DNA of 64,000 nucleotides from positions 64,001 through 128,000 of IMG/VR virus record IMGVR_UViG_3300029288_000081; one strand, 5' to 3'. The notes below the pieces were generated by a model that was not told the origin of the DNA, made no database searches, and saw nothing but the letters and a program-made list of their open reading frames with translations. The first letter of the stretch is position 1. Each line of letters starts with the position of its first letter. The DNA comes from a virus (lineage: Duplodnaviria; Caudoviricetes). Below, piece after piece: positions 1,133-59,310 of this stretch. The position numbers and the translations under genes were made by a program.

Positions 1133-1485
1133 CGGCCAGCATCCCTTCGGCTCCGGTTCCACTCGCTGAGCATCCGCGCTGCGGCTTCGAGATCGTCGCC
1201 ACCGCGCAGGCGCTCGTACTCCTCACGTTGACGAGCATCGAAGGCGGCGAGGTCCTCCTCGAACTTCTCTTCGATCTGCTCGATGTGCGCCTGGTGCGCC
1301 TGGATGGCTCCGTCGAGGCGTTCGTCGATGAGGCGCTCGCCGGGGCCCGCGTCGATGCCGGTGACGATGTCCGGCTGCGGTCCGGGGCCAGGGCCGACGC
1401 ATCGGCTGCCGATCACCCCGCCGACGACGAGCAGGATGAGGGCGACGACGCCGAGAAGGATCGCTTGGGTCCGCGTGATGGTCAT
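1129..1485 (-). CDS. N-terminal TM anchored coiled-coil protein (possible spanin-like)
   Basis: MTITRTQAILLGVVALILLVVGGVIG TM then charged helix; ATGA overlaps on both sides. Confidence 0.6.
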   Translation of the reverse strand: MTITRTQAILLGVVALILLVVGGVIGSRCVGPGPGPQPDIVTGIDAGPGERLIDERLDGAIQAHQAHIEQIEEKFEEDLAAFDARQREEYERLRGGDDLEAAARMLSEWNRSRRDAGR

Positions 1486-2948
1486 GCCTTCACCGCTCCT
1501 CTGTGCCAAAGCTCGTGCGGGTCAAGCTCATCGGGCCAGATCGTTTCGGCGTTGTACTTTGCGCCAATCAGGTCTACGCCGGTCATGTCCGTGCTGCTCA
1601 AGTCCACGTTGCTCAGGTCTGCGTTGCGCAGGACCGCGTTGTTCAGGTAAGTGTTGCGCATGACCGCGTAACGCAGATCCGCATCAGCCAGGTTCGCGTC
1701 GGTCAAGTTCGCGTTGGCCATGTTCGCGCCGGTCAGATCTGCCCCGGCCAGATCCTTCCCCGTCAGGTTCACGTTGGCTAGGTTCACACCGGACAGGCTC
1801 CTCCCCTTGAGGCTCGCTCCTGCCAACAGAAGACCTCGGACGTCGCCGCCCTTCGCCTTGTCGATGAACTCGACGACCATCGTGCGGATCAGCTCGACGA
1901 CCTCCATGACCTCCGCCTGCTCGCGGAGCGGAGGGTCGTTCTTCTGGCCCTCCGTGAACACGTAGTCCACGAACGCCGGATCCCCGATGTTCGAGTTGGT
2001 CTTGCCGAAGATCTGCGCGAACGCCTTGCGTGCCGGCTTCCACTCCATCGTGACGTACGGAACCCCGTCGGGGTCGCGGAGCGAGTAGATGACGCTCTCG
2101 CCGCGATCGATGGCGCTCTTGTACGAAGGGACGCAGTGCGAGAGGAAGCCCTTTTCGCATTCGAGCTGGCGCTTCTCCCTCAGCTCCTCGACGGCCCAGC
2201 CGCTCTTGAACTTGTAGACGACCTCTCCGTGGTGAACCTTCTTCTTCTCACGGAAGTTCGCGCTCGCGTCGAAGACGTCGGCGAGGGACATCTTCATGAT
2301 GTCTGTCCCAGTCGACTTCGCCCACTGTGCGATGAGGTTGCAGGAGCGTCGGAGCCTGTAGAGAGCTTGCACGTAGAAGTCGTACTCGGCGCGCTGGGCC
2401 AGAGGTCCTCCGCCGTCGATCTCGCTGATCGTGTGCTTCGACAGCTTGCTCAGTTCACGTGCCACCCATGGGAAGGTGCCGTCTGCATCGCTCGGCTCAC
2501 GGATGGCACTGTTGAAGCGAGGGAAGCTCTCCGCTCCGATCAGCTCCAGGACCAGTTCGAGTCTTTCACGCAGTGTCGACGCAGGCCTCTGCATGACCTG
2601 CACGCGCTTTTCCACCTCCGGGTCGCCGAACCACCAGTAGCCGAGCTGCTCTCGGTACGAGACGTCGGCCAGTGGTGGCTGCGTGCTGGGCATGATGAGC
2701 CCCGCGTGAAGCTGTCCTCCGTTGCCGAACATGGAACGGAGGCGGCTCGTCATCCGTGTGAACATCTCGCCCCAGACGGGGCTGCCCTGGGCGGCGAGCG
2801 TGTCTTCGAGGTCGTACTCGGGGTTGTCGATGCCGATGGTGTTGAAGATCACGCTGAGCGTGTCGAGCACCACCCACGGCTGCTTCTCGCCGTACGTCTT
2901 GACGATGTACTTGAGCCGATCGATCGGCGCGTTGGGGGTCAGTGACAC
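1482..2948 (-). CDS. PcfJ-like domain protein with C-terminal pentapeptide repeats
   Basis: ECEKGFLSHCVPSY...IYSLRDPDGVPYVTMEW resembles the PcfJ-like domain; ADLTG/ANLTD/ADLRY/ADLSN pentapeptide repeats. Confidence 0.75.
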   Translation of the reverse strand: MSLTPNAPIDRLKYIVKTYGEKQPWVVLDTLSVIFNTIGIDNPEYDLEDTLAAQGSPVWGEMFTRMTSRLRSMFGNGGQLHAGLIMPSTQPPLADVSYREQLGYWWFGDPEVEKRVQVMQRPASTLRERLELVLELIGAESFPRFNSAIREPSDADGTFPWVARELSKLSKHTISEIDGGGPLAQRAEYDFYVQALYRLRRSCNLIAQWAKSTGTDIMKMSLADVFDASANFREKKKVHHGEVVYKFKSGWAVEELREKRQLECEKGFLSHCVPSYKSAIDRGESVIYSLRDPDGVPYVTMEWKPARKAFAQIFGKTNSNIGDPAFVDYVFTEGQKNDPPLREQAEVMEVVELIRTMVVEFIDKAKGGDVRGLLLAGASLKGRSLSGVNLANVNLTGKDLAGADLTGANMANANLTDANLADADLRYAVMRNTYLNNAVLRNADLSNVDLSSTDMTGVDLIGAKYNAETIWPDELDPHELWHRGAVKA

Positions 2949-4745: not shown

Positions 4746-6932
4746 TCAGCGTCGCGACGTACGCCGCTCGGAGCGCCTGTTGCGTCGCACCCTCGTCGGC
4801 CCAGCGTTCGCCGCCAGGAGCGCGAGCGCGCCGACGGCGCCGATCCCAAGCCACGCCTGGCTCGACAGGCCCATGACGCCGGCCTCGTCGCCCATGCCGC
4901 CCAGGCCCGTCTTCGAGGTGTCCGCCAGGAGCGCAGCGAGCGGGTTCCCGATCGTGTCCCGCTCCTGGTCCGCCTTCTCTCCACCGGACGGCTCGGTCCA
5001 GGTGCCCCACTGCCGATCACAACCGCCAGCGCCGGCCCGGTAGCACGTCTCGCGCTCGCGCGACTTCGTGAGAGCCGCCTGCGCCGCCGAGCGAGCTAGC
5101 GCACGGCCCGCCGGTGTCGTCGGCTGCATGTCGCGGAGCAGTGAGACCAAGCGCTGGCCCGCCTGCACCATCGAGCCGCGGATGTTGTTGCGCTTGACCG
5201 AGTCGGAGTAGTCGGTCGCCTTGAGGTTGCCGTACTGCGAGTCGAGGTAGTTCTTTGCGATGGTCACCTCTTCCAACAGGGCCCTCGCGAGGGGCGCCTC
5301 GGCCTGCGTGTTGGCCTTGTCGATCACGACGGCCTGCTTGTACACGCTGACGAGCGGGCCGATCACCCTGTCCTGCTCGTGCGCGGCCTTGTCGTTGCCG
5401 TGGTCCTCGTTCAACGCGAAACGACCGCATCCGGTCTGGTCGTAGAGGTAGCAGAGCTTCCTGCGGATGGCAGAGAGGAGAGCCTGCTCGGTGAGAACTG
5501 CAACGGGGCGCACCAGCTTCTTGTCCCCCGAGTTCTGCGCGAGCACGAGGGCTTCGCGGAGGCACGCCGCGAGCGCTGCGCCAGCGGCAAGGATCGACTG
5601 CCGGGTGTTGTTGCGCTTCAGCGCGTCGGACCACTTGGTCGCCCTGTAGTGGTCGAACTGTCCGTCGACGTAGCCCTTCATGGCCGCACAGATGCGGAGC
5701 TTGGCGGTGATGAGCGGCTCGTACGCGGCCACCTCGCCGCGGGTAGACAGGGTCCGAGCGAAGTGTGCGTAGGCGGAGATGAGCGGCATCGTGGTGCTCG
5801 CCATCTCCTGGGCCGCCTTCACGTCAGGCTGATCTTCATCGAGCGCGAACGTGCCACACCCGGGCTCGTTCAGGAAGAACCCGCGCCACCGGTCGATCGA
5901 AGCGTTGAGCGCGGCCAGGGTGAGCTTTCCGACGGCGCGCATGCTCGTCATGCTGCCGAAGCTGTACGCGGACGCCCAGACGGTCTGGAGGCAGGCGACG
6001 AGAGTCCGCCCGTCGGCAAGGATCGACTGCCGGGTGTTGTTGCGCTTCAGCGGATCGTTGTTCGTGGCCCTGTAATGCCCCCACTGCCCGTCGATGTAGG
6101 ACTTGAGGAAGGTGCAGGGCCGCAGCATGGCGGCGAGGAACTTCTCGCCGTCGGCCTGCGCAAGAGCCCGCCTCGGGCCTCCGACCTTGGTCACCGCCTG
6201 CATGTAGGCGGCCACGAGCGGTACGATCACTCGGGCCTGCTCCTGGGCGCCCTTCGCGTCGGGCTGATCTTCGTCGAGCGCTTGGGTGCCGCAGCCGCGC
6301 TCGTTGTTGAGGAAGCAGATTCTGCGAGTGATCGCAGAGTCGAGTGCCCGCACGATCGACTGAGCGATGAGCGTCGTCGCCTGGTTGTTCGGCGACTGCA
6401 CGATCGCTTCCGCGTAGGTGGCCGCCAGCGCAGCGCCGCCGGCCAAGATCGACTGCCGGGTGTTGTTGCGCTTCACCAGATCGTTGTTCGTCGCCTTGTA
6501 CTCGTCGAACCACCCGTCGATCTGTGCGCGGGACACGTCTGCCGCGGCCTGAAGCGACGCGGCAGGATCCGTTGGGGCCCCCAGCTCCCGAGCCTGGGCC
6601 AGGCATGCGGCGATCTGCCCTTCGAGCCGCGTCATGCTCGTTCGGTCAGGCGTCGGCAGACTTCGGAGCTGGACGAGGCTCGCTCGCAGGGCATCACACT
6701 CGGCGGCCTTGGCCGCCCTGGCCACCTGCGGGTCGACGGCCGTCGGTCCGGTGGGCAGGGTGCTCTGTGCCGAGGCCGAGGACGGGCTCAGGAGCAGGTA
6801 CGCAGCTCCTCCGGCGGCAACGAGGCCGATCCCGCCCAGCACCAGCATCTTCTTCTTGGACGACGGAGCGGCGGGCGCGGCATCGTTCCGGCGCAGGCGC
6901 CGGCTGGACCTTCTCTTGAGTCGACGGGCCAT
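4746..6932 (-). CDS. helical four-repeat protein with TM helices and Arg-rich tails at both ends (728 aa)
   Basis: Starts MARRLKRRSSRRLRRN then TM; four repeats with Y(K/R)AT..D.(V/L)KRNN.R.S and GC..; ends TM + VRRNRRSERRTSRR. ATG overlaps the stop of 6932-7018. Confidence 0.8.
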   Translation of the reverse strand: MARRLKRRSSRRLRRNDAAPAAPSSKKKMLVLGGIGLVAAGGAAYLLLSPSSASAQSTLPTGPTAVDPQVARAAKAAECDALRASLVQLRSLPTPDRTSMTRLEGQIAACLAQARELGAPTDPAASLQAAADVSRAQIDGWFDEYKATNNDLVKRNNTRQSILAGGAALAATYAEAIVQSPNNQATTLIAQSIVRALDSAITRRICFLNNERGCGTQALDEDQPDAKGAQEQARVIVPLVAAYMQAVTKVGGPRRALAQADGEKFLAAMLRPCTFLKSYIDGQWGHYRATNNDPLKRNNTRQSILADGRTLVACLQTVWASAYSFGSMTSMRAVGKLTLAALNASIDRWRGFFLNEPGCGTFALDEDQPDVKAAQEMASTTMPLISAYAHFARTLSTRGEVAAYEPLITAKLRICAAMKGYVDGQFDHYRATKWSDALKRNNTRQSILAAGAALAACLREALVLAQNSGDKKLVRPVAVLTEQALLSAIRRKLCYLYDQTGCGRFALNEDHGNDKAAHEQDRVIGPLVSVYKQAVVIDKANTQAEAPLARALLEEVTIAKNYLDSQYGNLKATDYSDSVKRNNIRGSMVQAGQRLVSLLRDMQPTTPAGRALARSAAQAALTKSRERETCYRAGAGGCDRQWGTWTEPSGGEKADQERDTIGNPLAALLADTSKTGLGGMGDEAGVMGLSSQAWLGIGAVGALALLAANAGPTRVRRNRRSERRTSRR

Positions 6933-7018
6933 CACTCCCACTCCGGCGTGACGAACATGCCGCCGAACAGGGCCAGATACCCCACGGCCAAGGCGGCCAG
7001 CAAGACCAGGATCAGCAT
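6932..7018 (-). CDS. 28-aa single-TM microprotein
   Basis: MLILVLLAALAVGYLALFGGMFVTPEWE; TACGCT-N7-ATG upstream; TGATG coupling to the next gene. Confidence 0.55.
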   Translation of the reverse strand: MLILVLLAALAVGYLALFGGMFVTPEWE

Positions 7019-7050
7019 GCGGTCGAGCGTAACACGAGACGCCCCACCGG

Positions 7051-7311
7051 TCAGAGCCCCCGCCCCCCACCCAGCTTCCGGTAGTTCTGGAGGTTGAAGG
7101 GGTTGCTGTCCTGCGGGTTGCCCAGACGGCGCAGAGCCTCACACCGCTTGGCGCACTCGGGCTTGTCGCAGACGTGCGGACTGTTCCCGAAGGGTCGCGA
7201 CACTTCCTTCCCGCACCCGTCGCATGGACCAACTCGCATGAGCTGGTTGAACGGGCTGTGCTCCAGGAAGTCCGACTTCGGCCTGGTCTTGTACCCGTCT
7301 CGGACCTTCAT
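7051..7311 (-). CDS. small Zn-finger protein
   Basis: CDGC...CDKPEC; ATGA coupling. Confidence 0.5.
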   Translation of the reverse strand: MKVRDGYKTRPKSDFLEHSPFNQLMRVGPCDGCGKEVSRPFGNSPHVCDKPECAKRCEALRRLGNPQDSNPFNLQNYRKLGGGRGL

Positions 7312-14233: not shown

Positions 14234-14570
14234 CCTGCCGGAGCACGTGAGCGACGAAGGCGGCAGGAGGTCGCACACTGTGCTCGCGCAGGTAGTGGCC
14301 GAATCCTTCCGGCCACACGTAGACGCCGTCGGAGTAGTCGGCGCTGCCGTTGTTCCAGATGCGACAGATGCGGCACGTAGACATGCCGCGGTACTGGTCG
14401 CCAAGGAAGCGACTGTCCGAGACGTACCTGATCACCTTGTCTCGCTCGGCCCAGTTCCAGCTCGGGTCGACGAAGGCACGCACGTCCGGGTACTTGCCAT
14501 CGTCGTTTCGCGGGTCGAGGCTCTTCCAGAATCCGACCTCGATCGGCTGTCGCCGCGCCGTGTAGCTCAT
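14220..14570 (-). CDS. hypothetical protein with CxxC and WPEG..HY..EH motif
   Basis: YRGMSTCRIC...NGS...YVWPEGFGHYLREH; ATGA coupling. Confidence 0.65.
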   Translation of the reverse strand: MSYTARRQPIEVGFWKSLDPRNDDGKYPDVRAFVDPSWNWAERDKVIRYVSDSRFLGDQYRGMSTCRICRIWNNGSADYSDGVYVWPEGFGHYLREHSVRPPAAFVAHVLRQVSSR

Positions 14571-15322
14571 CGACCTCTCCGGCGGTTGCGCTTCACGTGC
14601 TTGCTCCTGCCGTAGGCCCACCAGGCGAAGGCGGCGCCAGCTCCGAGGACGGCGAGCCCAGGTACGTAGATGGGCACGGTCGTGGCCGCGCGAGCCCGAC
14701 CCGCCAACGACGGTCCTGCGACGCGCCCCTCGTCCTCGATCGTCACGAAGTCAGCAGGCCACGAGTTCGTCTGGCTCTCGGTGATGTACCAGTTGCCGTC
14801 TCGCAGGACGATGGCCGAGGACGGGTGCCGCAGCAGGTAGTTGGTCGTGACGGGCGCGTTCGCGAAGTTGGCGGCGCGCGGCACCGGGTTCGGCAGCCGG
14901 GCGGTCGCGAACTTGACGATGACCTCGCGGACCGCGGGACGAATCTCCGACCACGGCATCGTCGCTGCCCGGTCTCGAACCGCGAGCCTTCGTTCCGCGC
15001 ATTCATCCCTGCCGTGGTAGGCGCCGCCGGGACGGCACTTCGTCCCGTCGCGACGCCAGATGGGGTTCACCGGCTGACTGTGCGCCTGAACGAGCCCCTT
15101 CAGGCTGCTGCCGCGGCGCATCGCCAGGAGCTGCGCGTACGTCCACGCGGTCGCCTCGTTGTTGCCTGCCTCGTGCTGAACAGAACGGGCCAGCCACAGG
15201 AGATCGTCGGGCGTCATCTGGTACGACCAGCCGCCCTGGGTCTTGATTTGCCCAGGTGTCGGGATCGAGCTGACGTCCACCGGCTCTTCGCTCTGTCCCA
15301 GGCCCATCATCGCGTACGACAT
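14567..15322 (-). CDS. SleB-like cell-wall hydrolase with C-terminal TM anchor and basic tail
   Basis: DLLWLARSVQHEAG catalytic-helix motif; C-terminus LAVLGAGAAFAWWAY + VKRNRRRGR; N-terminus MMGLGQ. Confidence 0.65.
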   Translation of the reverse strand: MSYAMMGLGQSEEPVDVSSIPTPGQIKTQGGWSYQMTPDDLLWLARSVQHEAGNNEATAWTYAQLLAMRRGSSLKGLVQAHSQPVNPIWRRDGTKCRPGGAYHGRDECAERRLAVRDRAATMPWSEIRPAVREVIVKFATARLPNPVPRAANFANAPVTTNYLLRHPSSAIVLRDGNWYITESQTNSWPADFVTIEDEGRVAGPSLAGRARAATTVPIYVPGLAVLGAGAAFAWWAYGRSKHVKRNRRRGR

Positions 15323-18459: not shown

Positions 18460-18801
18460 CTAGTCGCCTGCCTGCCGCAGAACGTGCATACGCGGCTGAC
18501 CGTCGGTGTCTGCAACGGTCAAGCAAGCTCCGGCTGACATGCGGCTCATGACACCTGGCGCGTCAGCCCGAAACGCAGCGACGCTCACCGTCTCGTGGTC
18601 GCCTCTTGCGTCCCAGAGGTCGGGCCAGGAGCGCTCCGACTCGCGCTCGACCACTTCGCGCTCCTCATCGGTGAGCGTCTCGTAGAGATCTTCGAGGCTC
18701 CCGAGCGCAGCTCGATCGTCCTCTGGCTTCCAGCCTGGCTGACGCCGAGCTTCACGCAGGTCATCCACGAGCTGCTGGTAGATGGCGAGCGGAGAGTTCA
18801 C
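18460..18801 (-). CDS. hypothetical protein with weak C-terminal Phd/YefM-like segment
   Basis: GTGA overlap; ETVSVAAFRADAPGVMSRM..G..LTV resembles the Phd N-terminal fold. Confidence 0.45.
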   Translation of the reverse strand: MNSPLAIYQQLVDDLREARRQPGWKPEDDRAALGSLEDLYETLTDEEREVVERESERSWPDLWDARGDHETVSVAAFRADAPGVMSRMSAGACLTVADTDGQPRMHVLRQAGD

Positions 18802-20678
18802 GGGCCGAGCCTCCGCGGACGCACGCTCTTGCCCTGGCACGCCACGCACTGGACGTCCTTGCTGTCGTACTTGATCGTCCTGCCGAACACCGTCTTGGCG
18901 ATCGCATCGGCACGTCGTTCGACGCCCGCCGGCAGGCGCTGCCCGAGCATCTTCCCGAGATTGTTGCCGTAGCGGTAGTCGAGCGCGTGCCCGAACTCGT
19001 GTGCCATCAGGCCGCGGATGTTCGCGACCGGCAGGTCCTCGGTCTTCGCGGCGAAGGCGACGCGGATGGGGCTACCGTCCATGCAGTAGCCGAACTGCCG
19101 CTCGGAGCCGTGGCCGTTGTCGCCGCCGGCCTTCTCGTCGTGGTGCAGTTCCAGGTCGCCGAAGTCGGGGAACTGCTCGACGAGCGCGTCGAAGCACTCG
19201 TCGAAGGCGGCGCGGACCTTGATCATGGAGTGGCCGTTCGGCGCCAGCCCTGCTTTCGCTCTCGCCTCCATCTTCGTCAGCCGCGTGTAGTAGTCGGGGA
19301 ACTCGCGCAGGTGGTCCATGGCGATCTTGCCGGCCTCGCGCATGTCGCCCGTGTGCTCCTGCTCGACCTCGATTCCCATGCGCAGCTCGTCCATGTCGAC
19401 CGTCGGAGATCCGAGGTCACGCCAGACGGTGAGCGTCTGCCGTTCGGTGGGCTTCATAGCGCTCTCCTGAGTGTGCAGCGTCGGAACGCGACCGTTTGGA
19501 GTCCACAGCTCTCCCGACGCACCCGTTGAACCGAGGACAGGCTCTGGCAAAGTCTTGCCGTCGATAGCGATCACTTCAACCGGCGAGTGGGCGAGCATCG
19601 ACACTTCTGACTGGTCGGTCCCGTAGTACATGAACGACGTGAATCCAAACTCCCAGTCCACGTCTTCCGGTTGCACGACAGCCGTCAGAACGACCTCGCG
19701 CTCGTCCTCGCCAACCGTCTTGTTGTAGACGCCAGCGCCACGCCGGTCGTACGACCAGGACTTCCCCAGCTTATCGAAGCGGATCTTCTCGTGAGACGGC
19801 ACGGACACGGCTCGGTGGACCTCGATGCTACCGTTGCGCCATGCCTTCTGAGCAAAGCCAGCATACTCGGAGGCCCTATCTTCCAGGGTCTCCCTGTCGT
19901 CGTCCCAGTCCAAATCGTTCACGTATCGCTTCGCCCACCCGACAGCGGCTGATTCGCTGCTCAGGAACGCGGGGAACTTCGCGCGCTTTGCGACGCGTCC
20001 CGAGTTCGACGCCATCGTGATCGGCTTCATGACGAACGCGTCTCGGAGGCTACCGTGCCCGAAGTCGATGATGACCGGCCGCTTGCCGGACGCGTACCCA
20101 AGGTTGCCGTGGTGCAGGTCGACGACCTCGACCCCGCGCCACGAGAGCCACTTCACGCCATCGCGGATCTGACGAACGAAGGCTACAGACTCCTCGCTGG
20201 GGAGAAGGGCTTCCTCGCTCGGGTGAAGTACCGCCTCCTGAAGCAGGCGAGCGCGAGGGCCAGCCAGCGTCCTGCTCAGGTTCGTCTTGTTGGCGGTGGT
20301 GACCGGCTCCATCACGATGGCGAACAGGGGGCGTGACCTGTGGACGTCCGTCTCGTCTTCGTAGACGTCCCCGGGCAGACGGTGCACCGAGCGGACGTAC
20401 GGCAAGCCGGTGGGTGCGGTCCCCGTCTTCTTGACGTAGTCGAAGATCATCTTGCAGACGCGCGCGTCCTCTTCGTCGTCGGTGACCTTGAGCACGTCTC
20501 CGCTCGGCAACGCGAAGGCGTGGGCGTAGTGTCCCAGGCCGAGCTGCTTCAGCGGCAGCGTCCGCCCGTCTTCGCTGTGTAGGCCGAGGCTCGCGAGGAA
20601 GTTCGGGGCGCGCAGCAGCGTCGCCTCGATGTCTTCGATGGTCGCACGGTTGGCGGTGAGGCTGACGATCTTGGGCAC
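18798..20678 (-). CDS. polyvalent protein: kinase-like + ADP-ribosyltransferase-like + DUF5661-like + zincin peptidase domains
   Basis: Kinase: LGLGHYAHAF, VLKVT, DLHHGNLG, IIDFG. ART-like: VHRAV, KSWS, QSEV. DUF5661-like: ELRMGIEVEQEHT...AMDHLREFPDYYTRL. Zincin: AHEFGHALD...ERRADA. Confidence 0.75.
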   Translation of the reverse strand: MPKIVSLTANRATIEDIEATLLRAPNFLASLGLHSEDGRTLPLKQLGLGHYAHAFALPSGDVLKVTDDEEDARVCKMIFDYVKKTGTAPTGLPYVRSVHRLPGDVYEDETDVHRSRPLFAIVMEPVTTANKTNLSRTLAGPRARLLQEAVLHPSEEALLPSEESVAFVRQIRDGVKWLSWRGVEVVDLHHGNLGYASGKRPVIIDFGHGSLRDAFVMKPITMASNSGRVAKRAKFPAFLSSESAAVGWAKRYVNDLDWDDDRETLEDRASEYAGFAQKAWRNGSIEVHRAVSVPSHEKIRFDKLGKSWSYDRRGAGVYNKTVGEDEREVVLTAVVQPEDVDWEFGFTSFMYYGTDQSEVSMLAHSPVEVIAIDGKTLPEPVLGSTGASGELWTPNGRVPTLHTQESAMKPTERQTLTVWRDLGSPTVDMDELRMGIEVEQEHTGDMREAGKIAMDHLREFPDYYTRLTKMEARAKAGLAPNGHSMIKVRAAFDECFDALVEQFPDFGDLELHHDEKAGGDNGHGSERQFGYCMDGSPIRVAFAAKTEDLPVANIRGLMAHEFGHALDYRYGNNLGKMLGQRLPAGVERRADAIAKTVFGRTIKYDSKDVQCVACQGKSVRPRRLGP

Positions 20679-28118: not shown

Positions 28119-31100
28119 CTACCCGCCCGAGCGCTGTCGGACAACACCAACGAGGTCCATGGTGTACTTCTGAGCGTCGGCCACGGTGTGAAAGCCCGCC
28201 TTCGCGGGGATGCCGGGGAATCCGCTGGTCGAGACGTAGAAGTTCCCGTCGCTGCCGGTGATGGCGATGGCGAACTCGGCGTCGTGTCGGTCGTCGACCG
28301 CTGTGCCGTCTCGGTGGAGACGCAGGTACCACTCGGTGCCGCTGCTCATGAACCAGACGTAGATCTTGTCGGTCGCGACCGCCTTGCCCTCCTTCAGGAG
28401 GTACGTCTTCGCTTCGCCCAGAGACTCGTCTCGCTGGCGGCGGCGATCGTAGTGGTCCATCCCACCCTGGTAGCGCATCACCTCTGCGCCGCGCTGGCCC
28501 GCGTAGCCCTTGCGCAGCACCCACTCCTTGCCGGAGCGCGTCCAGGTGAAGACGTGGATGCCTTCGGGGGTCGTCGCCGCCTGCCTCACACGAGGGTCCT
28601 GCGGGACGGTGGCAGGATCCCACGTCTGCGACAGGAGCCGTGCGTCATCGTCCGTGATGCCCTTGAACGCACCGGCCGCAAGAGCGGTGTCGTGAAGCTG
28701 CACGATGAGCTTCGGCTTCAAGATGAGCGACGGCCTCCACGGCGACGAACTCCTGTTGTATGCACCCAGCATGCTTTCTACGTCACGCTGAAGCAGTTCG
28801 CCGCGACGGCCCGCCTCGATCGCCACGTGCTTGAGGGTGTCGGGCTCGTTGTTGAGTTCCGCCTGGCCGGTGAGGCTTCTTCCCGTGTACCACTCCAGGA
28901 CCGCCGTGACGCGGCCGACGATGATGTCCCACGGCGTCGACTTGGTGGCCTCCTTTTCCTTCCTGATCTCCGCGAAGCGAGCGCGAGTCTCGGCACGGAT
29001 CGTCTTGAGCTGCGCCTGCACCAGCTCCAGCATCCCGCGGTGAGCCGCCTTCATGTTCCGCGTCAGCTGGTTCGCGAACCCGCTGTCGTGGTCCATGAAG
29101 CCCTGGAGGTGCGTGATCTCGTGGATCGCCGTCGAGCACAGCTCCTCGACACCATCGATCGTCGACAGGTCGATCCTGTCTCCCGAGTGCGTCCAGACGT
29201 GCTCGTGCGCCTCGTAGTCGTAGCGCCCCCTCTCGAACTTCAGAGGGTTGATCATCAACCAGTCGGTGTCTTCCCTGTTCGTGTACGCGCCCAGCACCGG
29301 CAGCTTGTTGATGCCGTCCAGCATCATGATGAAGCCGACGCCGAAGGGGCGGAACTCTCCCAGGACGTTGAGGCCGAACTTGCAGGCTTCGGTCCATGCA
29401 CGGAGCAGGACGATGTACTTCGCCTCCATCGTCTCCGGTTCGAGGCCGGCGGGCGGCTTCCAGAACGGCATCTGGTTCGCCATGAAGAGGTCCGGCTTCC
29501 ACATCGCGTAGCGGACGGCCGTGGCGATCTGCTCGGTTGTCGTCGCCTGCGTCGCGGAGTGCTTGATGAGGCGGCTCGCGGTCTCGCGCGAGGACTGCAT
29601 GCGCTGGGCAGTCTCTTCTTCCGGGGTCACCGGAGGCGGCGCCGCAGCCGCATCCTCTTCCATCGCCTTCGCGGCCTCCTCGGCAGCCTCCTCCGCGTCG
29701 GCGACCGTCGGCGTCTTCTTCTGCGCCTGACGCTTCGCGAGCTGGTCGGCGATCTTGGCCACCGCCTTCGCGGCCACCTCAGCCGCCCGGCCCTCACGCA
29801 CTTCGATCGCGCCGCTTCCGCGGTAGATCTTCTCCGCCTTCCACTTCTTCGATCGAAGGAGTGCCTCGGGCTCGACCGCGAGACGCTCCTTCAGCTTCTC
29901 GACGAAGCTGCGCGCGGGTCCGATGAGCGAGTTGCGGCTCGCGTCGAACACATACTTGGCCGGCGCGTTGACGTCCACGTACACGACGCCGGGGATGTCG
30001 TTCGACCACTCCTCGAACATATAGACGCCACGAGCGCGCACGTAGAGGCCCTTGTTCGCCCGAGCGTTCCGGTGGTGGTGAGCGACGATCTCGCCGACCG
30101 TGTTGCCGTTCTCGTCAGCGATCCCCACCTTCGACACTTCCTCGCCGCCGATGAGATCGGCAGCGACCGTCTTGCCGTTCACGCGAACGCGAACGTTCGG
30201 CAGGTACGAGCGACCCAGGAGCTGCTGTGCGTACGTCTCAGCAGTCGTCTGCGTCAGAGGCATCCACACCGTCACGCGCGTACCCTGGATCGGACTAGCG
30301 CTCTGGTGGATGCCCGGCGGCTCCATCACGCTCTCGTGCTGTCCGAAGGCTACGAGGTCTCGCGTCTCGACCTTCCAGCCGAGCCACGGGAAGAGGATCA
30401 GGTTCTTCGCGTCTCCGAAGCCGCCTACCGCGTCATGCCCCTTCACGGACCCGCCACGCGTGAGCAAGGCTCGACGGAGAATGTCTGCGTCCATGCCGAC
30501 GCCGTTGTCGTAGGCGGTGACGACCATCGCCTCTGCCTCGGCACCGGTCTCGATGTCCTTGTACGTCCCGGCAGCGATGTTCCAGTCCATCTGCGTCGCC
30601 TGCGCGTCACGAGAGTTCTGGGCGACCTCTCGCCACCACGCGAGTTCCCAGTTGCGGTAGCGCTGGAGGAGCTTGCTCCAGAAGTCCGGCGAGACCCCCA
30701 TCGCGACCAGCGCGTTGCGGCTGAGAGGCGGATGCTTCGCGTCCCCGATGATGTCGCCCGACGGGACAGCCGAGGGGAACCTGTGACGCACCGGCTCTCT
30801 CAGGACCTGGAAGAAGAAGATGCTGCCCTCGACGAACGGCATGTCCATGCCGCCCTCGAAGAGCGGGTGCCACCCGTCGAGCGCCTTGGCGACCGCGTAC
30901 GCCGGGAAGGCGCTCCCGGTCTGGTAGAACCCCGGCGAGCTGAGGAACGCGTCCACGTCGTCGATCGCCTCGATGACGATCGGACTCTCCCTCGTCCCCG
31001 TCCCGCTCGTCTTCTCGAACGTGCGACCGCTCGGGCCCACGTCGAAGTTCCGGGTCATCGAGCGACGGCTCGACCGCCGCTTGCTCGACCGGCGGGTCAC
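28119..31100 (-). CDS. GHKL (Hsp90/MutL-like) ATPase fused to a zincin-like HExxH domain, with Arg-rich N-terminal tail
   Basis: REVAQNSRDA, YDNGVGM, GGSVK..VGGFG, GTRV; AIHEITH..DHD..F; starts MTRRSSKRRSSRRSMTRN. Confidence 0.8.
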   Translation of the reverse strand: MTRRSSKRRSSRRSMTRNFDVGPSGRTFEKTSGTGTRESPIVIEAIDDVDAFLSSPGFYQTGSAFPAYAVAKALDGWHPLFEGGMDMPFVEGSIFFFQVLREPVRHRFPSAVPSGDIIGDAKHPPLSRNALVAMGVSPDFWSKLLQRYRNWELAWWREVAQNSRDAQATQMDWNIAAGTYKDIETGAEAEAMVVTAYDNGVGMDADILRRALLTRGGSVKGHDAVGGFGDAKNLILFPWLGWKVETRDLVAFGQHESVMEPPGIHQSASPIQGTRVTVWMPLTQTTAETYAQQLLGRSYLPNVRVRVNGKTVAADLIGGEEVSKVGIADENGNTVGEIVAHHHRNARANKGLYVRARGVYMFEEWSNDIPGVVYVDVNAPAKYVFDASRNSLIGPARSFVEKLKERLAVEPEALLRSKKWKAEKIYRGSGAIEVREGRAAEVAAKAVAKIADQLAKRQAQKKTPTVADAEEAAEEAAKAMEEDAAAAPPPVTPEEETAQRMQSSRETASRLIKHSATQATTTEQIATAVRYAMWKPDLFMANQMPFWKPPAGLEPETMEAKYIVLLRAWTEACKFGLNVLGEFRPFGVGFIMMLDGINKLPVLGAYTNREDTDWLMINPLKFERGRYDYEAHEHVWTHSGDRIDLSTIDGVEELCSTAIHEITHLQGFMDHDSGFANQLTRNMKAAHRGMLELVQAQLKTIRAETRARFAEIRKEKEATKSTPWDIIVGRVTAVLEWYTGRSLTGQAELNNEPDTLKHVAIEAGRRGELLQRDVESMLGAYNRSSSPWRPSLILKPKLIVQLHDTALAAGAFKGITDDDARLLSQTWDPATVPQDPRVRQAATTPEGIHVFTWTRSGKEWVLRKGYAGQRGAEVMRYQGGMDHYDRRRQRDESLGEAKTYLLKEGKAVATDKIYVWFMSSGTEWYLRLHRDGTAVDDRHDAEFAIAITGSDGNFYVSTSGFPGIPAKAGFHTVADAQKYTMDLVGVVRQRSGG

Positions 31101-31999
31101 CTCTGCCCCCAGGACCGAAGCCGGCTCTTGCGCGGTCCGCTGCGGCGCCGGTTCGGCTGCATGCGGCTGCGGATGATGAAGGCGGCGATGGTCCCGGTGA
31201 GCGCGATGCCGCCGGTGATGAGGAGGTACTTCTCGGTCTTCGTGATTCCGTACTTCACGTCACGCTCGGGCTCGGGCGGCTCGTAGGTGCCCTCCTGCCC
31301 GAGCGCATCGATCTCGTCGCCGTCCAGGCCCATGACCGCCAGGGTGCCGGCCATCGACGGTGACAGCGTGTGCCGAGCCATCGGTGTGCCCGGGTTGATA
31401 CGAGCTGCTCCGCGCGAGGAGAAGAACAGCCCCTGCTCATTGAACCATGGCGTGGGGTCCTGGTTGTACAGTGCTTCCGCAGGCGAACGCGGGTACGGCC
31501 CGGGGAAAGGGCTCGTGCCGTCGGGACGCGCCGTACGAATTTCGAGGTGCAAGTGCCGGTTCATCGGTCGCGGATTGCGGCCACCGGCGCGTGCTCGCGC
31601 TGCGAACGTCTCGACCGACTCGCCCGGCAGGGGCGAGAACTGTCCGTTGGTCGTGTTGCCCATGACGCCGATGCGCTGGCCGCCGACCACGGGCTGCCCC
31701 GGTGTCACGGTGACGGAGCCGTCCTTGAGGTGCGCGTAGAGGGCGTACTTGCCGCCGTCGTGACGGATCACGACCGCGTTGCCGTACCCGTTCATCGGAC
31801 TGCCAGGCACGTTCTGGGAGACGAGGGTGACCGTCCCGCCCTTCACGGCGTAGATGGGCTCGTCCTCCCTCGACCGGCGGGTGGAACCGATGTCTAGACC
31901 CGCGTGCATATGGGGGGCGCCCGACGCACGGGAGGGTCGGACCCCGTACGTCGAGACGAGCCTGGAGGTCGAGAGGGCAACGGGCGGTGAGGATGCCAT
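31097..31999 (-). CDS. M23 family peptidoglycan peptidase with C-terminal TM anchor and basic tail
   Basis: HAGLDI, GYGNAVVIRH, YAHL, IGVMGNT, HLHLEIR; TM + MQPNRRRSGPRKSRLR. Confidence 0.9.
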   Translation of the reverse strand: MASSPPVALSTSRLVSTYGVRPSRASGAPHMHAGLDIGSTRRSREDEPIYAVKGGTVTLVSQNVPGSPMNGYGNAVVIRHDGGKYALYAHLKDGSVTVTPGQPVVGGQRIGVMGNTTNGQFSPLPGESVETFAARARAGGRNPRPMNRHLHLEIRTARPDGTSPFPGPYPRSPAEALYNQDPTPWFNEQGLFFSSRGAARINPGTPMARHTLSPSMAGTLAVMGLDGDEIDALGQEGTYEPPEPERDVKYGITKTEKYLLITGGIALTGTIAAFIIRSRMQPNRRRSGPRKSRLRSWGQR

Positions 32000-52753: not shown

Positions 52754-54025
52754 TCAGTTCTCCTTCTTCTTGTGAGCCATGAGCAGAGCCTTGAGGCTGT
52801 CGTACTGGTTCTGACGCACGAGCGCACTGCGCTCGACGTCCGCGTGCTCCTTCAACCACGCCTGCGCGGCTGGGCGCGTCCCGAGCTTTTCGAGCAGCAG
52901 CTCGCTCAGGTTCTTGGCCTGGATGTTCGTGATGGTCTCGGAGCTGCCGTCGCGGCTCGGGCCGTGAGGCCCTGAGACGCCAGCCGCCGGCACCTGTGCC
53001 GCCGCCTGGGGCCGCGAGACCGGCTTCTCGTCGAGCTTGCGGTTCTCCTCGTGCGCGTTGTTCGTCCCGCTCAGGTCCCAGCCGGGCTTGCCCTGCTCCG
53101 CGGCAGCCTTGACCAGTGCGATGTCCAGGGGGGTGATGTTCGGTACTTCGACCTCGAAGGTCTCGTGCGAGACCGAGTCCTGCGCCGTGCCCTCCCAGGC
53201 GTAGCCCAGGGAGCCCATCTGCCTGGCTGCCGTCTCGTTCCCTCTGCGGGCCTGCGCCCGAAGCTCGCGAGCCGCCTTGGAGGCCTGCTGTGCCTCCGGG
53301 AGCATCCCGGTCCCCCGCTTGACCGACTCCTCGGCCCACCAGCGCTGCGCGGTGACGATCTCGTCCAGCGTCGAGGCGGGCAGCGCTGCGGGCTTCTTGA
53401 GCGTCGGCGTCGCATCGACGTATCGCTCCGGAACCTCGTCGTAGGCCATGCCGACGATCTCTTCTGCCGAGACGTCGCCGAAGCCTGCCAGGCGCAGGAC
53501 GGCGCGGTTGTACGCCCTGGTGTCCGCGGTCGCGATGACGCTGTGCAGATCGATGCGACCTCCGCGCTCGGTCTTGTCGCACCAGCCCACACCCTCTTCG
53601 GTGCGGCCCGAGCGCTTGTGCGTGGCCTCGTAGGTCACGAAGCTGTACGTGGCCATCGCATCGTCGGGAAGACCACGCGTCATCTTGCGCCGCGACTCGA
53701 TGCCCAGCGCCGTCGCCAGCTTGGTGATGCCGCTCTTCTTCGGGCTCGCGCGGACCTCGACCCCGTAGGCCTTCGCCGCCTTCTCGGCGTCTGCGCGGCG
53801 AGAGTAGACGCTCTGCTTGGTCTTGCCGGCCTCCGTGTAGGAGATCGTGTAGATGTAGTCGCTCTCGTCGAGGATGGCCGCGTACAGCCGCTGCTTCTCG
53901 GCGAAGGCAGCTCGCAGCCGAGCCGGAGTCGCGATCGGTGTGATGAATCCGAGGTCCGACAGATCGGCCAGCGCGGCCGTATCGTCAGCAACGACCATGG
54001 ACCCGTCCCCTGTGTTCTCGCTCAT
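52754..54025 (-). CDS. putative recombination / single-strand annealing protein
   Basis: KKSG..KLA, EGVGWC..E, TADTRAYNRAV...G.VSAEE; lies next to the SSB. Confidence 0.5.
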   Translation of the reverse strand: MSENTGDGSMVVADDTAALADLSDLGFITPIATPARLRAAFAEKQRLYAAILDESDYIYTISYTEAGKTKQSVYSRRADAEKAAKAYGVEVRASPKKSGITKLATALGIESRRKMTRGLPDDAMATYSFVTYEATHKRSGRTEEGVGWCDKTERGGRIDLHSVIATADTRAYNRAVLRLAGFGDVSAEEIVGMAYDEVPERYVDATPTLKKPAALPASTLDEIVTAQRWWAEESVKRGTGMLPEAQQASKAARELRAQARRGNETAARQMGSLGYAWEGTAQDSVSHETFEVEVPNITPLDIALVKAAAEQGKPGWDLSGTNNAHEENRKLDEKPVSRPQAAAQVPAAGVSGPHGPSRDGSSETITNIQAKNLSELLLEKLGTRPAAQAWLKEHADVERSALVRQNQYDSLKALLMAHKKKEN

Positions 54026-54240
54026 TCTGCCCCTTTCTTCTTCTCGCCGTTCACGTGGTAGCCGGCCTGGAACTTCACAAGGTCGGCACGCTTGACTCCG
54101 ATGAAGTCGCCGACCTTGCTCGACTTCAACATCTCGCTCTTGATCCACAGCCAGACCGTTGATCGGTGGACGCCCATCTCCTTGGCGACCTCGCCAGTGC
54201 TCAACAGGCCCGACGCCTGAAACTTCTTGCTCAGGGTCAT
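54022..54240 (-). CDS. excisionase/MerR-like HTH DNA-binding protein
   Basis: LLSTGEVAKEMGVHRSTVWLWIKS..L...KVG. Confidence 0.8.
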   Translation of the reverse strand: MTLSKKFQASGLLSTGEVAKEMGVHRSTVWLWIKSEMLKSSKVGDFIGVKRADLVKFQAGYHVNGEKKKGAE

Positions 54241-54302
54241 GCTTTCCTTGTTTTTCTGGGCGCCCAGCGACACCTTGTATGTCGCGCGCGGAGGGTCGTC
54301 AA

Positions 54303-54730: not shown

Positions 54731-55624
54731 TCATCGAAGCGCACGGCGCCTGCGATTCTTGGCGACGCCCATGCCGCGGCCGCTCTGGTGGAAGCCCATG
54801 AGGAGCGCCTTCTTGTCCGCGGAGGTCATCAGGTGTCCGAACGCGTCGTAGACAGCCTGCGCCGGGATCTTGAGCGACTTGGCCTTCGTGAAGACGCCGT
54901 CCAGTGAGATGACGCGGTTCGTGGCGATGTTCCTGATGACCTTGGGCGTCTCCTCGATGACACCCCAGATGGCCTTGGACGGGTCGCGCGCGTCGAGCAG
55001 GACCAGGCTTCCCTTCTTGGTGCCGCGTGCCAGCCCCCGGGCGCCCACGTGGCCGATCTTGACGTGCTTGAGGCCGTAGGTGAGCTGTGCCGCATCACCG
55101 GCCTCGTCGCCCAGCTTGGACTTGCGAACCATGTGGCCGAACGCCAGGAGAACGTCGCGCGCGTCGATCCCGAGCTTCTGAGCGATCTTCTGGAACTCGG
55201 CGACCGTCTTGAACACGTCGATGTTTGGGCCGGAGATGTGGATCTTGCCGGCGAGCTTGTCTTCGGGGCCCGCGTACTCCGCTGCCTCTGTGCTGCCGAT
55301 CTTGAGGTAGCCCTTCTCGATGATGGGCGCGGCACCGCTGTTACGCTTCACCCCCGCGCGCCCGAACGCCTGCTCGCCAGCCGACGCCGAGATGCCCTCC
55401 TCACGCAAGATACGCGGGAGCTGCGACAGGGAAGGGAACTCGGTCATCCCCGAGCCGCGCACCACGGCGATTCGCCCGCGGAAGACGGGGTTCGAGCCCC
55501 TGTAGGCGGTCGCCTTGAACCCGGGGCCCGAGATGGAACCAGGCCTGATGGTCACGCGACGGCCGGGGCTGGCAGCGGGGTTGCGGCTGGTGCGACGACG
55601 GCTGGTGCGACGACTTCTCGGCAT
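54731..55624 (-). CDS. basic three-repeat protein with Arg-rich tails at both ends
   Basis: MPRSRRTSRRRTSRN...VAKNRRRRALR; three modules ending (G/K)I.A....AFG; TACACT-N6-ATG. Confidence 0.75.
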   Translation of the reverse strand: MPRSRRTSRRRTSRNPAASPGRRVTIRPGSISGPGFKATAYRGSNPVFRGRIAVVRGSGMTEFPSLSQLPRILREEGISASAGEQAFGRAGVKRNSGAAPIIEKGYLKIGSTEAAEYAGPEDKLAGKIHISGPNIDVFKTVAEFQKIAQKLGIDARDVLLAFGHMVRKSKLGDEAGDAAQLTYGLKHVKIGHVGARGLARGTKKGSLVLLDARDPSKAIWGVIEETPKVIRNIATNRVISLDGVFTKAKSLKIPAQAVYDAFGHLMTSADKKALLMGFHQSGRGMGVAKNRRRRALR

Positions 55625-56015
55625 GGCGGGAGTGTAACAGGCGGCGGCTTGGCCGCACCAGGCGGCCGATGCCACGAAGGCCCCCAGATCGGCCACGCCG
55701 GGGAACGCGTGGTTCATGCCGGGCACCAAGGAGAAATGCGCCGGCCCGCCTATCGTCCTTTTCCAAGGGAATGAGTGGCCGCTGGCCGCTCTCGCGGATG
55801 GGAGGACGCCGCCCTGTTCTACCTCTACTTCTCGACCCGCACCTCGCCCTGCTTTCGGAGGCGACGCCACTGACCGCGCCTTCCATCGAAGATCCAGAAA
55901 GTTGTACCGATCTTCGCAACGTCTCCGTGGGTCGGACCCGCGACATCCGAGACCCGTTCGACCGTACCACGGAAGACCATCATCCGAAGCGGAGCGCCGC
56001 TCGTGCGGTACGGGC

Positions 56016-56372
56016 TCACTTGCGCCGCCTCTTCTTCGGCAGCGTGTCCTCGAACCGCTTGTGCTGCGGCCCGTCCGTCTGTACGTCTCGAAACCGTCCG
56101 TCACGGGCCAGCATCCGGAGGCCGAGGTTGTTGCCCTCGTTCAGCTGGTTGATGAGCCAGCCGACACAGGGCTGCTCGGCGCCGACCGGCGAGTCGTGGC
56201 AGGCCATCATGCGCACGCCACCGGGAGCAAGCGTCATCGGATCGCCCGGGTTGGCGATGGTCGAGCTGAGCGCCTCGTGCTTCTTGACGCAGTAGCCGCC
56301 CGGGATGTCCTTCTCGGGACGCACGCCCTTGCGCCAGGGGCACGCCTTGCACTGCTTGGTGCGGACGTTCAC
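56016..56372 (-). CDS. DUF6283-like Cys-rich protein
   Basis: CKACPWR...MACH...CVGWL. Confidence 0.65.
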   Translation of the reverse strand: MNVRTKQCKACPWRKGVRPEKDIPGGYCVKKHEALSSTIANPGDPMTLAPGGVRMMACHDSPVGAEQPCVGWLINQLNEGNNLGLRMLARDGRFRDVQTDGPQHKRFEDTLPKKRRRK

Positions 56373-58828: not shown

Positions 58829-59310
58829 AGCAGCCCCCTTCGCAGGCTCTTCTCGCCCGAGATGCGCTCGTAGGCGCGCTCGCGCTTGACGAGCTTGGCG
58901 TACGCCTCGATCTGCTCCACGAAGAGCACCGTCGACTGGATCGCCGTATCGCGCGTCGTGTCGTACAGGCCGAGCCCCGACGGCACGGGCACGGACGCGA
59001 CCCCGTCCACGATGATGCTGCGCAGCGCTTCGCACACCCTGACGGCCAGGAGGTACTCCGCGAAGTTCCACTGCCAGCGCGGCTTGATGCGGGCTCCCTG
59101 GACCGCACACGGTGTGAGAGCGGTGGCTGCGTCGAGCTGCACCAGGAGCACCGTCGCCGTCTTCGCGTGGACGGGGTTGAGCTTGAGCAGTTCGAGCACT
59201 GCGATGACGTCGGCGGTCGCCTTGGCGCCTGCTGCCCAGGTCGACGCCGACACCGGGTCGAACGGCATGGGCTCGGAGGGCTTCTTACGGAGGAGGGGGG
59301 CGGGCATCAT
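58825..59310 (-). CDS. hypothetical protein
   Basis: ATGA coupling. Confidence 0.55.
   Translation of the reverse strand: MMPAPLLRKKPSEPMPFDPVSASTWAAGAKATADVIAVLELLKLNPVHAKTATVLLVQLDAATALTPCAVQGARIKPRWQWNFAEYLLAVRVCEALRSIIVDGVASVPVPSGLGLYDTTRDTAIQSTVLFVEQIEAYAKLVKRERAYERISGEKSLRRGLL

Follow-up and report, generated by a model that had tools for sequence, protein, structure and literature searches.

A 64,000-nucleotide stretch of viral DNA (hereafter the window), corresponding to bases 64,001-128,000 of a 171,466-bp IMG/VR virus record (genome G000), encodes a protein, P0001, in which four modules are separated by short segments ending in the same asparagine (Asn) motif. The modules, namely a kinase without the C-lobe, an ADP-ribosyltransferase (ART)-like domain, DUF5661 and a small zincin, are unrelated to one another, and four effector-type modules in one viral polypeptide make P0001 a member of the polyvalent class. 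The Asn motif is conserved at the module borders of P0001 homologues and is reused on other proteins of the virus. Its placement, conservation and reuse are most economically explained if the motif is the site of a protease acting in trans, and we tentatively propose, giving the idea a little less than an even chance, that P0001 is cut at the Asn motifs by a protease encoded by the virus.

P0001 is the product of a single open reading frame (ORF; window 18798-20678, minus strand), which begins with GTG and codes for 626 amino acids plus a stop; the database entry P0002 is identical to it. The G+C content of the ORF was 0.86 at third codon positions (GC3) and 0.44 at second codon positions (GC2). 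This is the pattern expected of a real gene in the window, where G+C amounts to 65%. The initial annotation of the window, made from the nucleotide letters, had described a four-domain protein with an Asn motif at each domain junction, and its positions for the ORF and for the five motifs LTAN, MASN, WTPN, LAPN and HEFGH (Table 1) proved to be exact. The four domain labels were borne out as well, by the fold and catalytic motifs (kinase), by a conserved triad accompanied by a weak list of fold matches (ART-like), by a Pfam match (DUF5661) and by an HExxH plus ExxxD signature (zincin). Membership of the phage and plasmid polyvalent class, also put forward there, fits the description given by Iyer et al. 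2017 (PMC5512222).

The domain limits were checked by homologue comparison and by two AlphaFold models, both of which indicated four modules. The homologue set comprised 64 database homologues and 37 proteins from a search among shorter proteins (approximately 100 in total), and, as these proteins are mutually related, all counts over them represent consistency and not independent events. The edges of BLASTP high-scoring segment pairs from the 64 homologues clustered in P0001 at residues 225-234, 395-409 and 475-484. Of 6,243 internal similarity breakpoints in the same 64 proteins, which are not independent of one another, 26% fell within 3 residues of a junction-type Asn, against 3% at random. 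In P0001 itself, homologue breakpoints within 4 residues numbered 25 at junction 1, 5 at junction 2 (plus 11 at residues 405-409) and 43 at junction 3. The modules are shuffled among the homologues, and some homologues lack one or more of them. P0003 has the order kinase, DUF5661, ART-like module (module 2) and zincin, P0017 carries the kinase module twice, DUF5661 comes first in P0030 and P0034, and the zincin comes first in P0062. In other homologues, the place of module 2 is occupied by GNAT (PF00583), Arr (PF12120) or ART-PolyVal (PF18760). Some modules were also found by themselves: stand-alone zincins of 142-158 amino acids begin at query residues 484-487, just past the junction Asn, and stand-alone module-2 proteins begin at query residue 236. 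Thus, the segment-pair edges, the shuffled orders and the stand-alone copies identify the four modules as independent evolutionary units, with approximately the limits given in Table 1.

The AlphaFold2 model of the full-length protein was computed on a 22-sequence alignment of the shuffled homologues. Residues 8-222 were of high confidence, and residues 226-405 had a predicted local distance difference test score (pLDDT) below 50; module 2 was then folded alone with 72 stand-alone relatives. In the models, LTAN, MASN and LAPN lie between domains predicted with confidence, and the tail of module 2, which holds WTPN, is of lower confidence. This agrees with the earlier claim that the motifs lie at the domain junctions, in inter-domain segments and outside the folds.

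Module 1 carries the catalytic motifs of a kinase, namely the G-loop (G47-x-G49), K64, D187-L-H-H-G-N192 and D205-F-G207. In the homologue alignment (A1), each of G47, G49, K64, D187, H189, N192, D205 and G207 is either invariant or kept in at least 90% of the sequences, and the pLDDT of the module was mostly 80-97. In a Foldseek search of PDB, run with the full-length model (template modelling score by query only ~0.16), the best 50 matches were all eukaryotic-type protein kinases, including JNK1, Fus3, PKR and ERK2, with E ~1e-4 over ~170 columns. A phmmer search of PDB pointed to 9gmp_A, a MAP kinase kinase-like protein (E 0.013). The kinase fold ends 18 residues after the DFG motif, and module 1 is of the C-lobe-less kinase type described for polyvalent proteins by Iyer et al. 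(PMC5512222). A KPIxMA[SAT]N tail is conserved after the kinase module in the homologues.

For module 2, a HMMER search with residues 226-395 recovered 198 relatives at the level of 50%-identity clusters; many are stand-alone proteins of 160-200 amino acids, some are embedded in proteins of 1,300-2,650 amino acids, and no Pfam family was matched among them. The module folded alone reached a pLDDT of 93 and a predicted template modelling score of 0.86. In an alignment of 73 sequences, R289 does not vary, and at least 90% of the sequences keep S309 (in W-S) and E358 (in Q-S-E). All three residues sit on predicted strands, and their order is that of R-S-E ARTs. The known R-S-E ARTs (cholera/pertussis/LT, C3-like, Vis, Scabin and Rhs TreX/TreTu) likewise have Arg on strand 1, Ser on strand 2 and Q-x-E at the start of a later strand, the strands of module 2 being predicted ones. 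ART-superfamily chains dominate the list of fold matches, all of them weak. No PDB match of significance was found by Foldseek with the module-2 model, the sequence and profile searches of PDB gave nothing meaningful, the matches in BFVD were uncharacterised tailed-phage proteins, and ESM Atlas searches by features and by shape returned unnamed viral clusters only. The best reading of module 2, judged from the aligned residues and the model, is an ART-like domain with an R-S-E triad, placed in no curated ART family and of predicted activity only. The W of WTPN is the conserved last residue of this module, and the last 10 residues of its model had a pLDDT of 70. The same end is kept in P0003 (..SWTPN-GRAMPVTPN-G) despite the different module order.

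Module 3 was matched by DUF5661 (PF18905) at residues 427-473 with 59.2 bits (cut-off 27; E 5e-16), and was modelled as four helices at residues 412-476 with pLDDT of 90-96. LAPN is part of a conserved AKAGLAPN, in which N481 is at least 90% conserved in alignment A1, and the pLDDT falls to 59 at LAPN, between helices 463-476 and 486-502. In module 4, H560-E-F-G-H564 and E587-R-R-A-D591, separated by 22 residues, form the thermolysin-type HExxH...ExxxD signature; the former lies in a predicted helix at 551-578 and the latter in one at 586-598 (pLDDT 83-93 over 531-600). An alignment of stand-alone and fused zincins (A3) showed H560, E561, H564, E587 and D591 to be invariant, with the pattern H-E-x-G-H-A-x-D, and C532, C611, C614 and a C-terminal RPRRLG(P) are conserved as well. 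The zincin module together with RPRRLG is the constant element of the family, found in nearly all of the 64 plus 37 homologues. Its Pfam matches were all sub-threshold (best E 0.0018, M57), and nearly all were to zinc-peptidase families (eCIS_core, DUF2268, YgjP, M78 and M48); sequence and profile searches of PDB gave nothing meaningful. On these signatures, module 4 is predicted to be a gluzincin-like peptidase of 145 residues.

The initial annotation had counted four Asn motifs at four of four junctions. With a junction matrix of eight columns, built from 127 homologue junction peptides with P0001 left out, these four Asn rank first to fourth among the 15 Asn of P0001 (scores in Table 1), and the remaining 11 score at most 3.8 bits. 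The bare pattern x-x-[ASP]-N, in contrast, matches seven of the 15 Asn, and three of the matches (RAPN 23-26, TTAN 127-130 and PVAN 550-553) are inside folded domains. The matrix scores of these look-alikes were -4.5, 0.0 and 0.4 bits, respectively. Whether four of four is obtained thus depends on the choice of matches, and the figure overstates how selective the bare pattern is. In the logo of 145 homologue junction Asn, written in the P and P' positions of protease sites, P4 is L/M/V/I, P3 is often A, P2 is P/S/A/K/R, P1 is N, P1' is P/G/A/S and P2' is R/G/S/K; this profile differs from that of 500 non-junction Asn.

We then asked how often a hydrophobic-x-x-N motif ([LMVI]-x-x-N, then P/G/A/S) occurs within 32 residues of a module edge in the ~100 homologues. 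It was present at the N-terminal and C-terminal edges of the kinase in 44/49 and 50/52 cases, respectively, at those of DUF5661 in 25/31 and 31/31, and at the N-terminal edge of the zincin in 76/83. Overall, 81-100% of the edges of these three modules have the motif, as compared with 11-21% of control windows inside modules, and where homologues with other domain orders were compared the motif was retained at every junction. In the models of P0001, LTAN precedes the first helix, MASN follows the last kinase strand, WTPN belongs to the tail of module 2, and LAPN is at the pLDDT dip between DUF5661 and the zincin. In three examples, the junction peptide was kept while its codons drifted.

Four other origins of the motif were considered and rejected: a joint of recombination at the DNA level, as synonymous codons drift (three examples only); an intein-type Asn, as the residue after Asn is not C/S/T and HN is absent; an N-glycosylation sequon, as the +2 position is not S/T; and 2A-like NPGP skipping, as that motif is absent. 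In P0092, P0098 and P0122, module-2 homologues from more distant high-G+C viruses, R-x-N-P recurs every ~180-200 residues at apparent module borders (positions 14, 197, 385 and 549 in P0092), and the Asn junction rule may therefore extend beyond the clade of P0001.

The same motif closes an N-terminal leader. Most homologues start with (R-N)-PKIVSL-SPPxx-AAAGLxPN followed by Arg, and P0001 has a short form, M-PKIVS-LTAN followed by R. The leader was modelled with a pLDDT of 40, ahead of a first helix that begins at residue 14. A PKIVS segment also follows the internal junction Asn in several homologues, and the leader is present on some stand-alone zincins and absent from others (the leaders of P0235 and P0241 have two Asn sites). 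The internal copies and the variable presence on stand-alone zincins indicate that the leader is a separable tag and not part of a domain. A leader-like start, VSLTPN-A, was also found in a 488-amino-acid protein (window 1482-2948, minus strand), for which a pentapeptide-repeat match and, slightly below the Pfam cut-off, a PcfJ-like match were obtained.

At the other end of proteins, 13 genes of G000 encode C-terminal Arg-rich tails (12 are listed in Table 1), mostly behind a hydrophobic, transmembrane (TM)-like stretch, and the Arg run comes directly after Asn in 12 of the 13 (e.g. ..AKN-RRRVRRNRR). In two related complete genomes, G001 and G004, the Asn-then-Arg-run rule applies to 5/5 tails. 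It is this rule only that is shared, as the exact tail NRRRVRRN was not found in the related genomes. The junction matrix gave 50 matches in G000 as compared with 25.2 +/- 4.1 in shuffles, 29 as compared with 18.3 in G001, and 30 as compared with 17.4 in G004.

Two further N-terminal recurrences were seen. A 277-amino-acid protein (genome 162596-163429, plus strand; L002:10596-11429), highly conserved and without a family match, starts with MPKIVGTRER in all three genomes, and its M-PKIV start matches the polyvalent leader. A second recurrent N-terminal motif, MSY(A)..GLG(Q), is shared by many otherwise unrelated proteins of G000 (Table 1).

Table 1. Segments of P0001 and genes of genome G000 bearing recurrent terminal motifs
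Feature	Residues	Window position	Genome position	Strand	Basis or score
N-terminal leader (M-PKIVS-LTAN)	1-10	20649..20678		-	homologue N-termini
LTAN of the leader	7-10	20649-20660		-	7.0 bits at N10
Module 1, kinase without C-lobe	11-221	20016..20648		-	fold and motifs
Junction 1, MASN, then S-G	222-225	20004..20015		-	15.0 bits (N225)
Module 2, ART-like	226-391	19506..20003		-	conserved R-S-E triad; no Pfam model
Junction 2, WTPN, then G-R	392-395	19494..19505		-	5.9 bits (N395)
Module 3, DUF5661	396-477	19248..19493		-	Pfam PF18905
Junction 3, LAPN, then G-H	478-481	19236..19247		-	15.9 bits (N481)
Module 4, small zincin	482-626	18801..19235		-	HExxH + ExxxD
HEFGH	560-564	18987-19001		-	zincin motif
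Arg-tail genes in the window		4746-7232, 14567-15322, 54731-56104		-
Arg-tail genes (i)			53665-54261, 148843-150084, 150386-150958, 153106-153486, 155582-156319
Arg-tail genes (ii)			156811-157173, 167230-168972, 168969-169778, 170052-170279
MSY(A)..GLG(Q) starts (among others)			148061, 150386, 151752, 153490	+
MSY(A)..GLG(Q) start		14567-15322	78567-79322	-

The four modules are strung together like beads, with short unstructured linkers between them, and each linker ends in [L/M/V/I(W)]-x-[P/A/S/T]-Asn with a small residue next to it. If the motif is a processing site, cutting there, presumably at the bond after Asn, would remove the 10-residue PKIVS leader from the N-terminus and release four proteins of ~215, 170, 86 and 145 residues. 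P0001 may be packaged and delivered with the DNA, and its modules may act on targets in the host, as the initial annotation had supposed in calling them separate host-takeover effectors. Proteolytic release of domains from polyvalent proteins has been predicted by Iyer et al. 2017 (PMC5512222).

There are two candidates for the protease. The main outside candidate is P0223 (genome 143491-144141, plus strand; L003:4491-5141), a protein of 216 amino acids with a language-model (ESM) feature similarity of 0.97 to viral Transglut_core clusters. Its counterparts in G001 and G004 are 83% and 67% identical, respectively, and its candidate catalytic residues are in the order C...H...D. P0223 had no Pfam or PHROG match, and Pfam searches with P0223 and nine neighbouring late genes gave nothing usable. 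The other candidate is the zincin of P0001 itself. Hidden Markov model (HMM) searches of the whole genome at E<=1 gave no match to Peptidase_S78, S77, ClpP, C13 (legumain), C14 (caspase) or Transglut_core.

Several points weigh against the cutting of P0001 by a protease in trans: (i) processing is inferred from sequence alone, and the virus is uncultured; (ii) the genome yielded no member of a recognised prohead-protease or Asn-specific peptidase family, and language-model similarity is the sole ground for calling P0223 transglutaminase-like; (iii) WTPN and LTAN fit the junction consensus only moderately well, and less well than MASN and LAPN; (iv) the homologues are interrelated, and the motif counts are accordingly not independent events; (v) the genome-wide enrichment of the motif over shuffles is only ~2-fold in G000 and ~1.6-fold in G001 and G004; and (vi) the P0001 gene sits in no recognisable structural block, its neighbours being methylase, HNH, integrase and muramidase genes. 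In addition, some polyvalent proteins, namely N4 vRNAP, ArdC and TraC1, are transferred uncut according to Iyer et al. (PMC5512222).

The last point leads to the strongest of the alternatives, in which P0001 works intact and the hydrophobic-x-x-Asn segments are uncut linkers or docking or packaging signals, which may ease the exchange of cassettes. Besides the precedents transferred whole, this alternative gains from the fact that no protease has been identified, and AKAGLAPN prolongs DUF5661 and KPIxMASN prolongs the kinase, so that either segment could be a structural tail of its domain. Nevertheless, a pure linker does not explain why the Asn rule also applies to leaders and to the borders of Arg-rich tails in unrelated proteins, and the combination of one near-invariant Asn, a hydrophobic P4 and a small P1' is what protease sites typically show. 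Joints of recombination at the DNA level are made unlikely by the drift of codons under a kept peptide in the three examples above. We thus consider an intact P0001 rather unlikely, though less so than the alternatives that follow.

Alternatively, the C-terminal zincin of P0001 might itself do the cutting at these sites, in cis or once released, as in the MPTase autoprocessing model of Iyer et al. The zincin is the sole module constant in nearly all homologues, and its HExxH...ExxxD signature is intact. Among its sub-threshold Pfam neighbours is eCIS_core, a zincin family, and extracellular contractile injection systems (eCIS) are linked to effector release. Nevertheless, junction-type motifs are also found in the zincin-less P0064, in the PcfJ-like protein and in the Arg-tailed membrane proteins, all of which would need action in trans. 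Moreover, zincins usually select P1', which is the variable position here, unless Asn itself is P1'. Self-cutting by the zincin is therefore improbable in our judgement.

The least probable alternative is an Asn chemistry other than proteolysis, either succinimide-mediated cleavage or deamidation (Asn-Gly, -Pro, -Ser), or a transglutaminase-like or sortase/legumain-like transamidation in which the downstream part is discarded. P1' is enriched in P, G, A and S, the residues after Asn most prone to succinimide chemistry, the transglutaminase-like candidate P0223 is conserved, and the layout of TM segment, motif and basic tail recalls sorting signals; such chemistry nevertheless seems very doubtful, because a hydrophobic residue conserved at P4 suggests that the site is recognised by a binding pocket, the Asn-Arg pair of the tails is not labile, the motif of sortase and exosortase substrates precedes the TM segment whereas the motif here follows it, and no acceptor is known.

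Returning to a virus-encoded protease acting in trans, it is attractive to speculate that hydrophobic-x-x-Asn is the code of a so far unrecognised protease, serving maturation or sorting, in prokaryotic viruses of an undescribed clade with genomes of 160-171 kb. This enzyme would strip PKIVS and Arg-rich tags from at least a dozen cargo and membrane proteins and cut the polyvalent proteins into their kinase, ART-like, DUF5661 and zincin parts. This wider proposal is possible, and we hold it with less confidence than the cutting of P0001 itself.

The clade consists of uncharacterised viruses of 160-171 kb. When P0001 was compared by tblastn with 50,697 phage and 72,556 plasmid records, no match was returned. 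PHROGs contained no family for P0001 and hardly any for 30 further proteins that the genome encodes, and the whole-genome HMM searches (E<=1) gave no match to Terminase_6N or to HK97 Phage_capsid. The 1045-amino-acid helicase of G000 is only 24-39% identical to its best phage relatives, and G000 looks like a member of a highly divergent lineage of viruses.

A gap of 24 nt separates the P0001 gene from the stop of the gene before it. Synteny with a related contig of 166.5 kb (L004) puts the P0001 gene between MT-A70/HNH genes and muramidase/integrase/GP88 genes. Just upstream of the polyvalent gene of L004, between its MT-A70 and HNH genes, is a gene for a 632-amino-acid protein with a weak Cas12f1-like_TNB (TnpB-like) match (L004:5707-7605, plus strand), which is absent from the corresponding place in the window. 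Elsewhere in the window, an 830-amino-acid protein (59307-61799, minus strand) has DUF2201_N metallopeptidase and VWA-like domains, with a LAGLIDADG-type domain at residues 337-384; this insertion is probably an intein. A protein of 993 amino acids (28119-31100, minus strand) has an Arg/Ser-rich head ending in MTRN-F and no Pfam match at E<=0.001, and its gene overlaps the stop of an M23 peptidase gene (31097-31999, minus strand).

What is new here is a conserved Asn junction code in the polyvalent class, a class that is itself already known. No description of this junction and leader motif was found in Iyer et al. 2017 or in motif-directed literature searches. Processing of polyvalent proteins has been predicted since 2017, and, as neither that paper nor those searches supplied a rule for the cleavage sites, the prediction has been hard to test. 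In P0001, four candidate bonds can be stated explicitly, together with the sizes of the fragments they predict; the ~100 shuffled homologues serve as natural controls, and further tagged proteins come from across the genome. The analysis also defines two unmodelled domain families, a widespread ART-like domain of phages and a gluzincin-like peptidase of 145 residues that also stands alone, and draws attention to a clade of viruses in which the machinery of structure and maturation escapes current profile libraries. If the wider proposal is correct, P0001 would be the first case in which a polyvalent protein proves to be a true polyprotein cut at defined sites, and the protease would belong to the first prokaryotic viral system with Asn at the scissile position.

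P0001 shares with the polyvalent proteins of Iyer et al. (PMC5512222) the combination of a C-lobe-less kinase, an ART and a peptidase in one chain, the extreme shuffling, and GNAT, Arr and ART-PolyVal as alternatives. It differs from the class in that (i) its peptidase matches neither Pfam MPTase-PolyVal nor any other Pfam family above threshold, (ii) its ART-like module is unmodelled and a MuF/portal-binding domain is absent, and (iii) it has a defined Asn motif at the junctions and leader, whereas the word 'linker' was not found in the text of Iyer et al. and the passages there containing 'cleav' name no site.

Internal proteins of T4 have a capsid-targeting sequence cut by gp21 (at L/I-x-E), and ejection proteins of phiKZ and SPN3US are cut at A-x-E (PMC5694885, PMC10052503). 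As in these phages, a leader of ~10 residues ends in a motif that is also used internally, and the motif is common to many unrelated proteins of one virus. On the other hand, P1 is Asn here and Glu there, a protease of the S77 type was not detected, and the sites in P0001 separate whole predicted enzymatic domains of one chain. As a proposed processing substrate, P0001 is nearest in function to the T4 leaders with their gp21 sites and to the precursors processed in adenovirus, with Asn at the key position.

The adenovirus protease provides another comparison, as it cuts DNA-bound precursor proteins at (M/I/L)-x-G-x|G sites. P0001 belongs to a prokaryotic virus, its P1 is Asn and its P2 is not Gly, and the candidate protease, the side of the system that we infer, would at best be transglutaminase-like and not of clan CE. 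Nevertheless, very basic, Arg-rich peptides that would bind DNA are among both sets of substrates, and both kinds of sites have a hydrophobic P4 and a small P1'.

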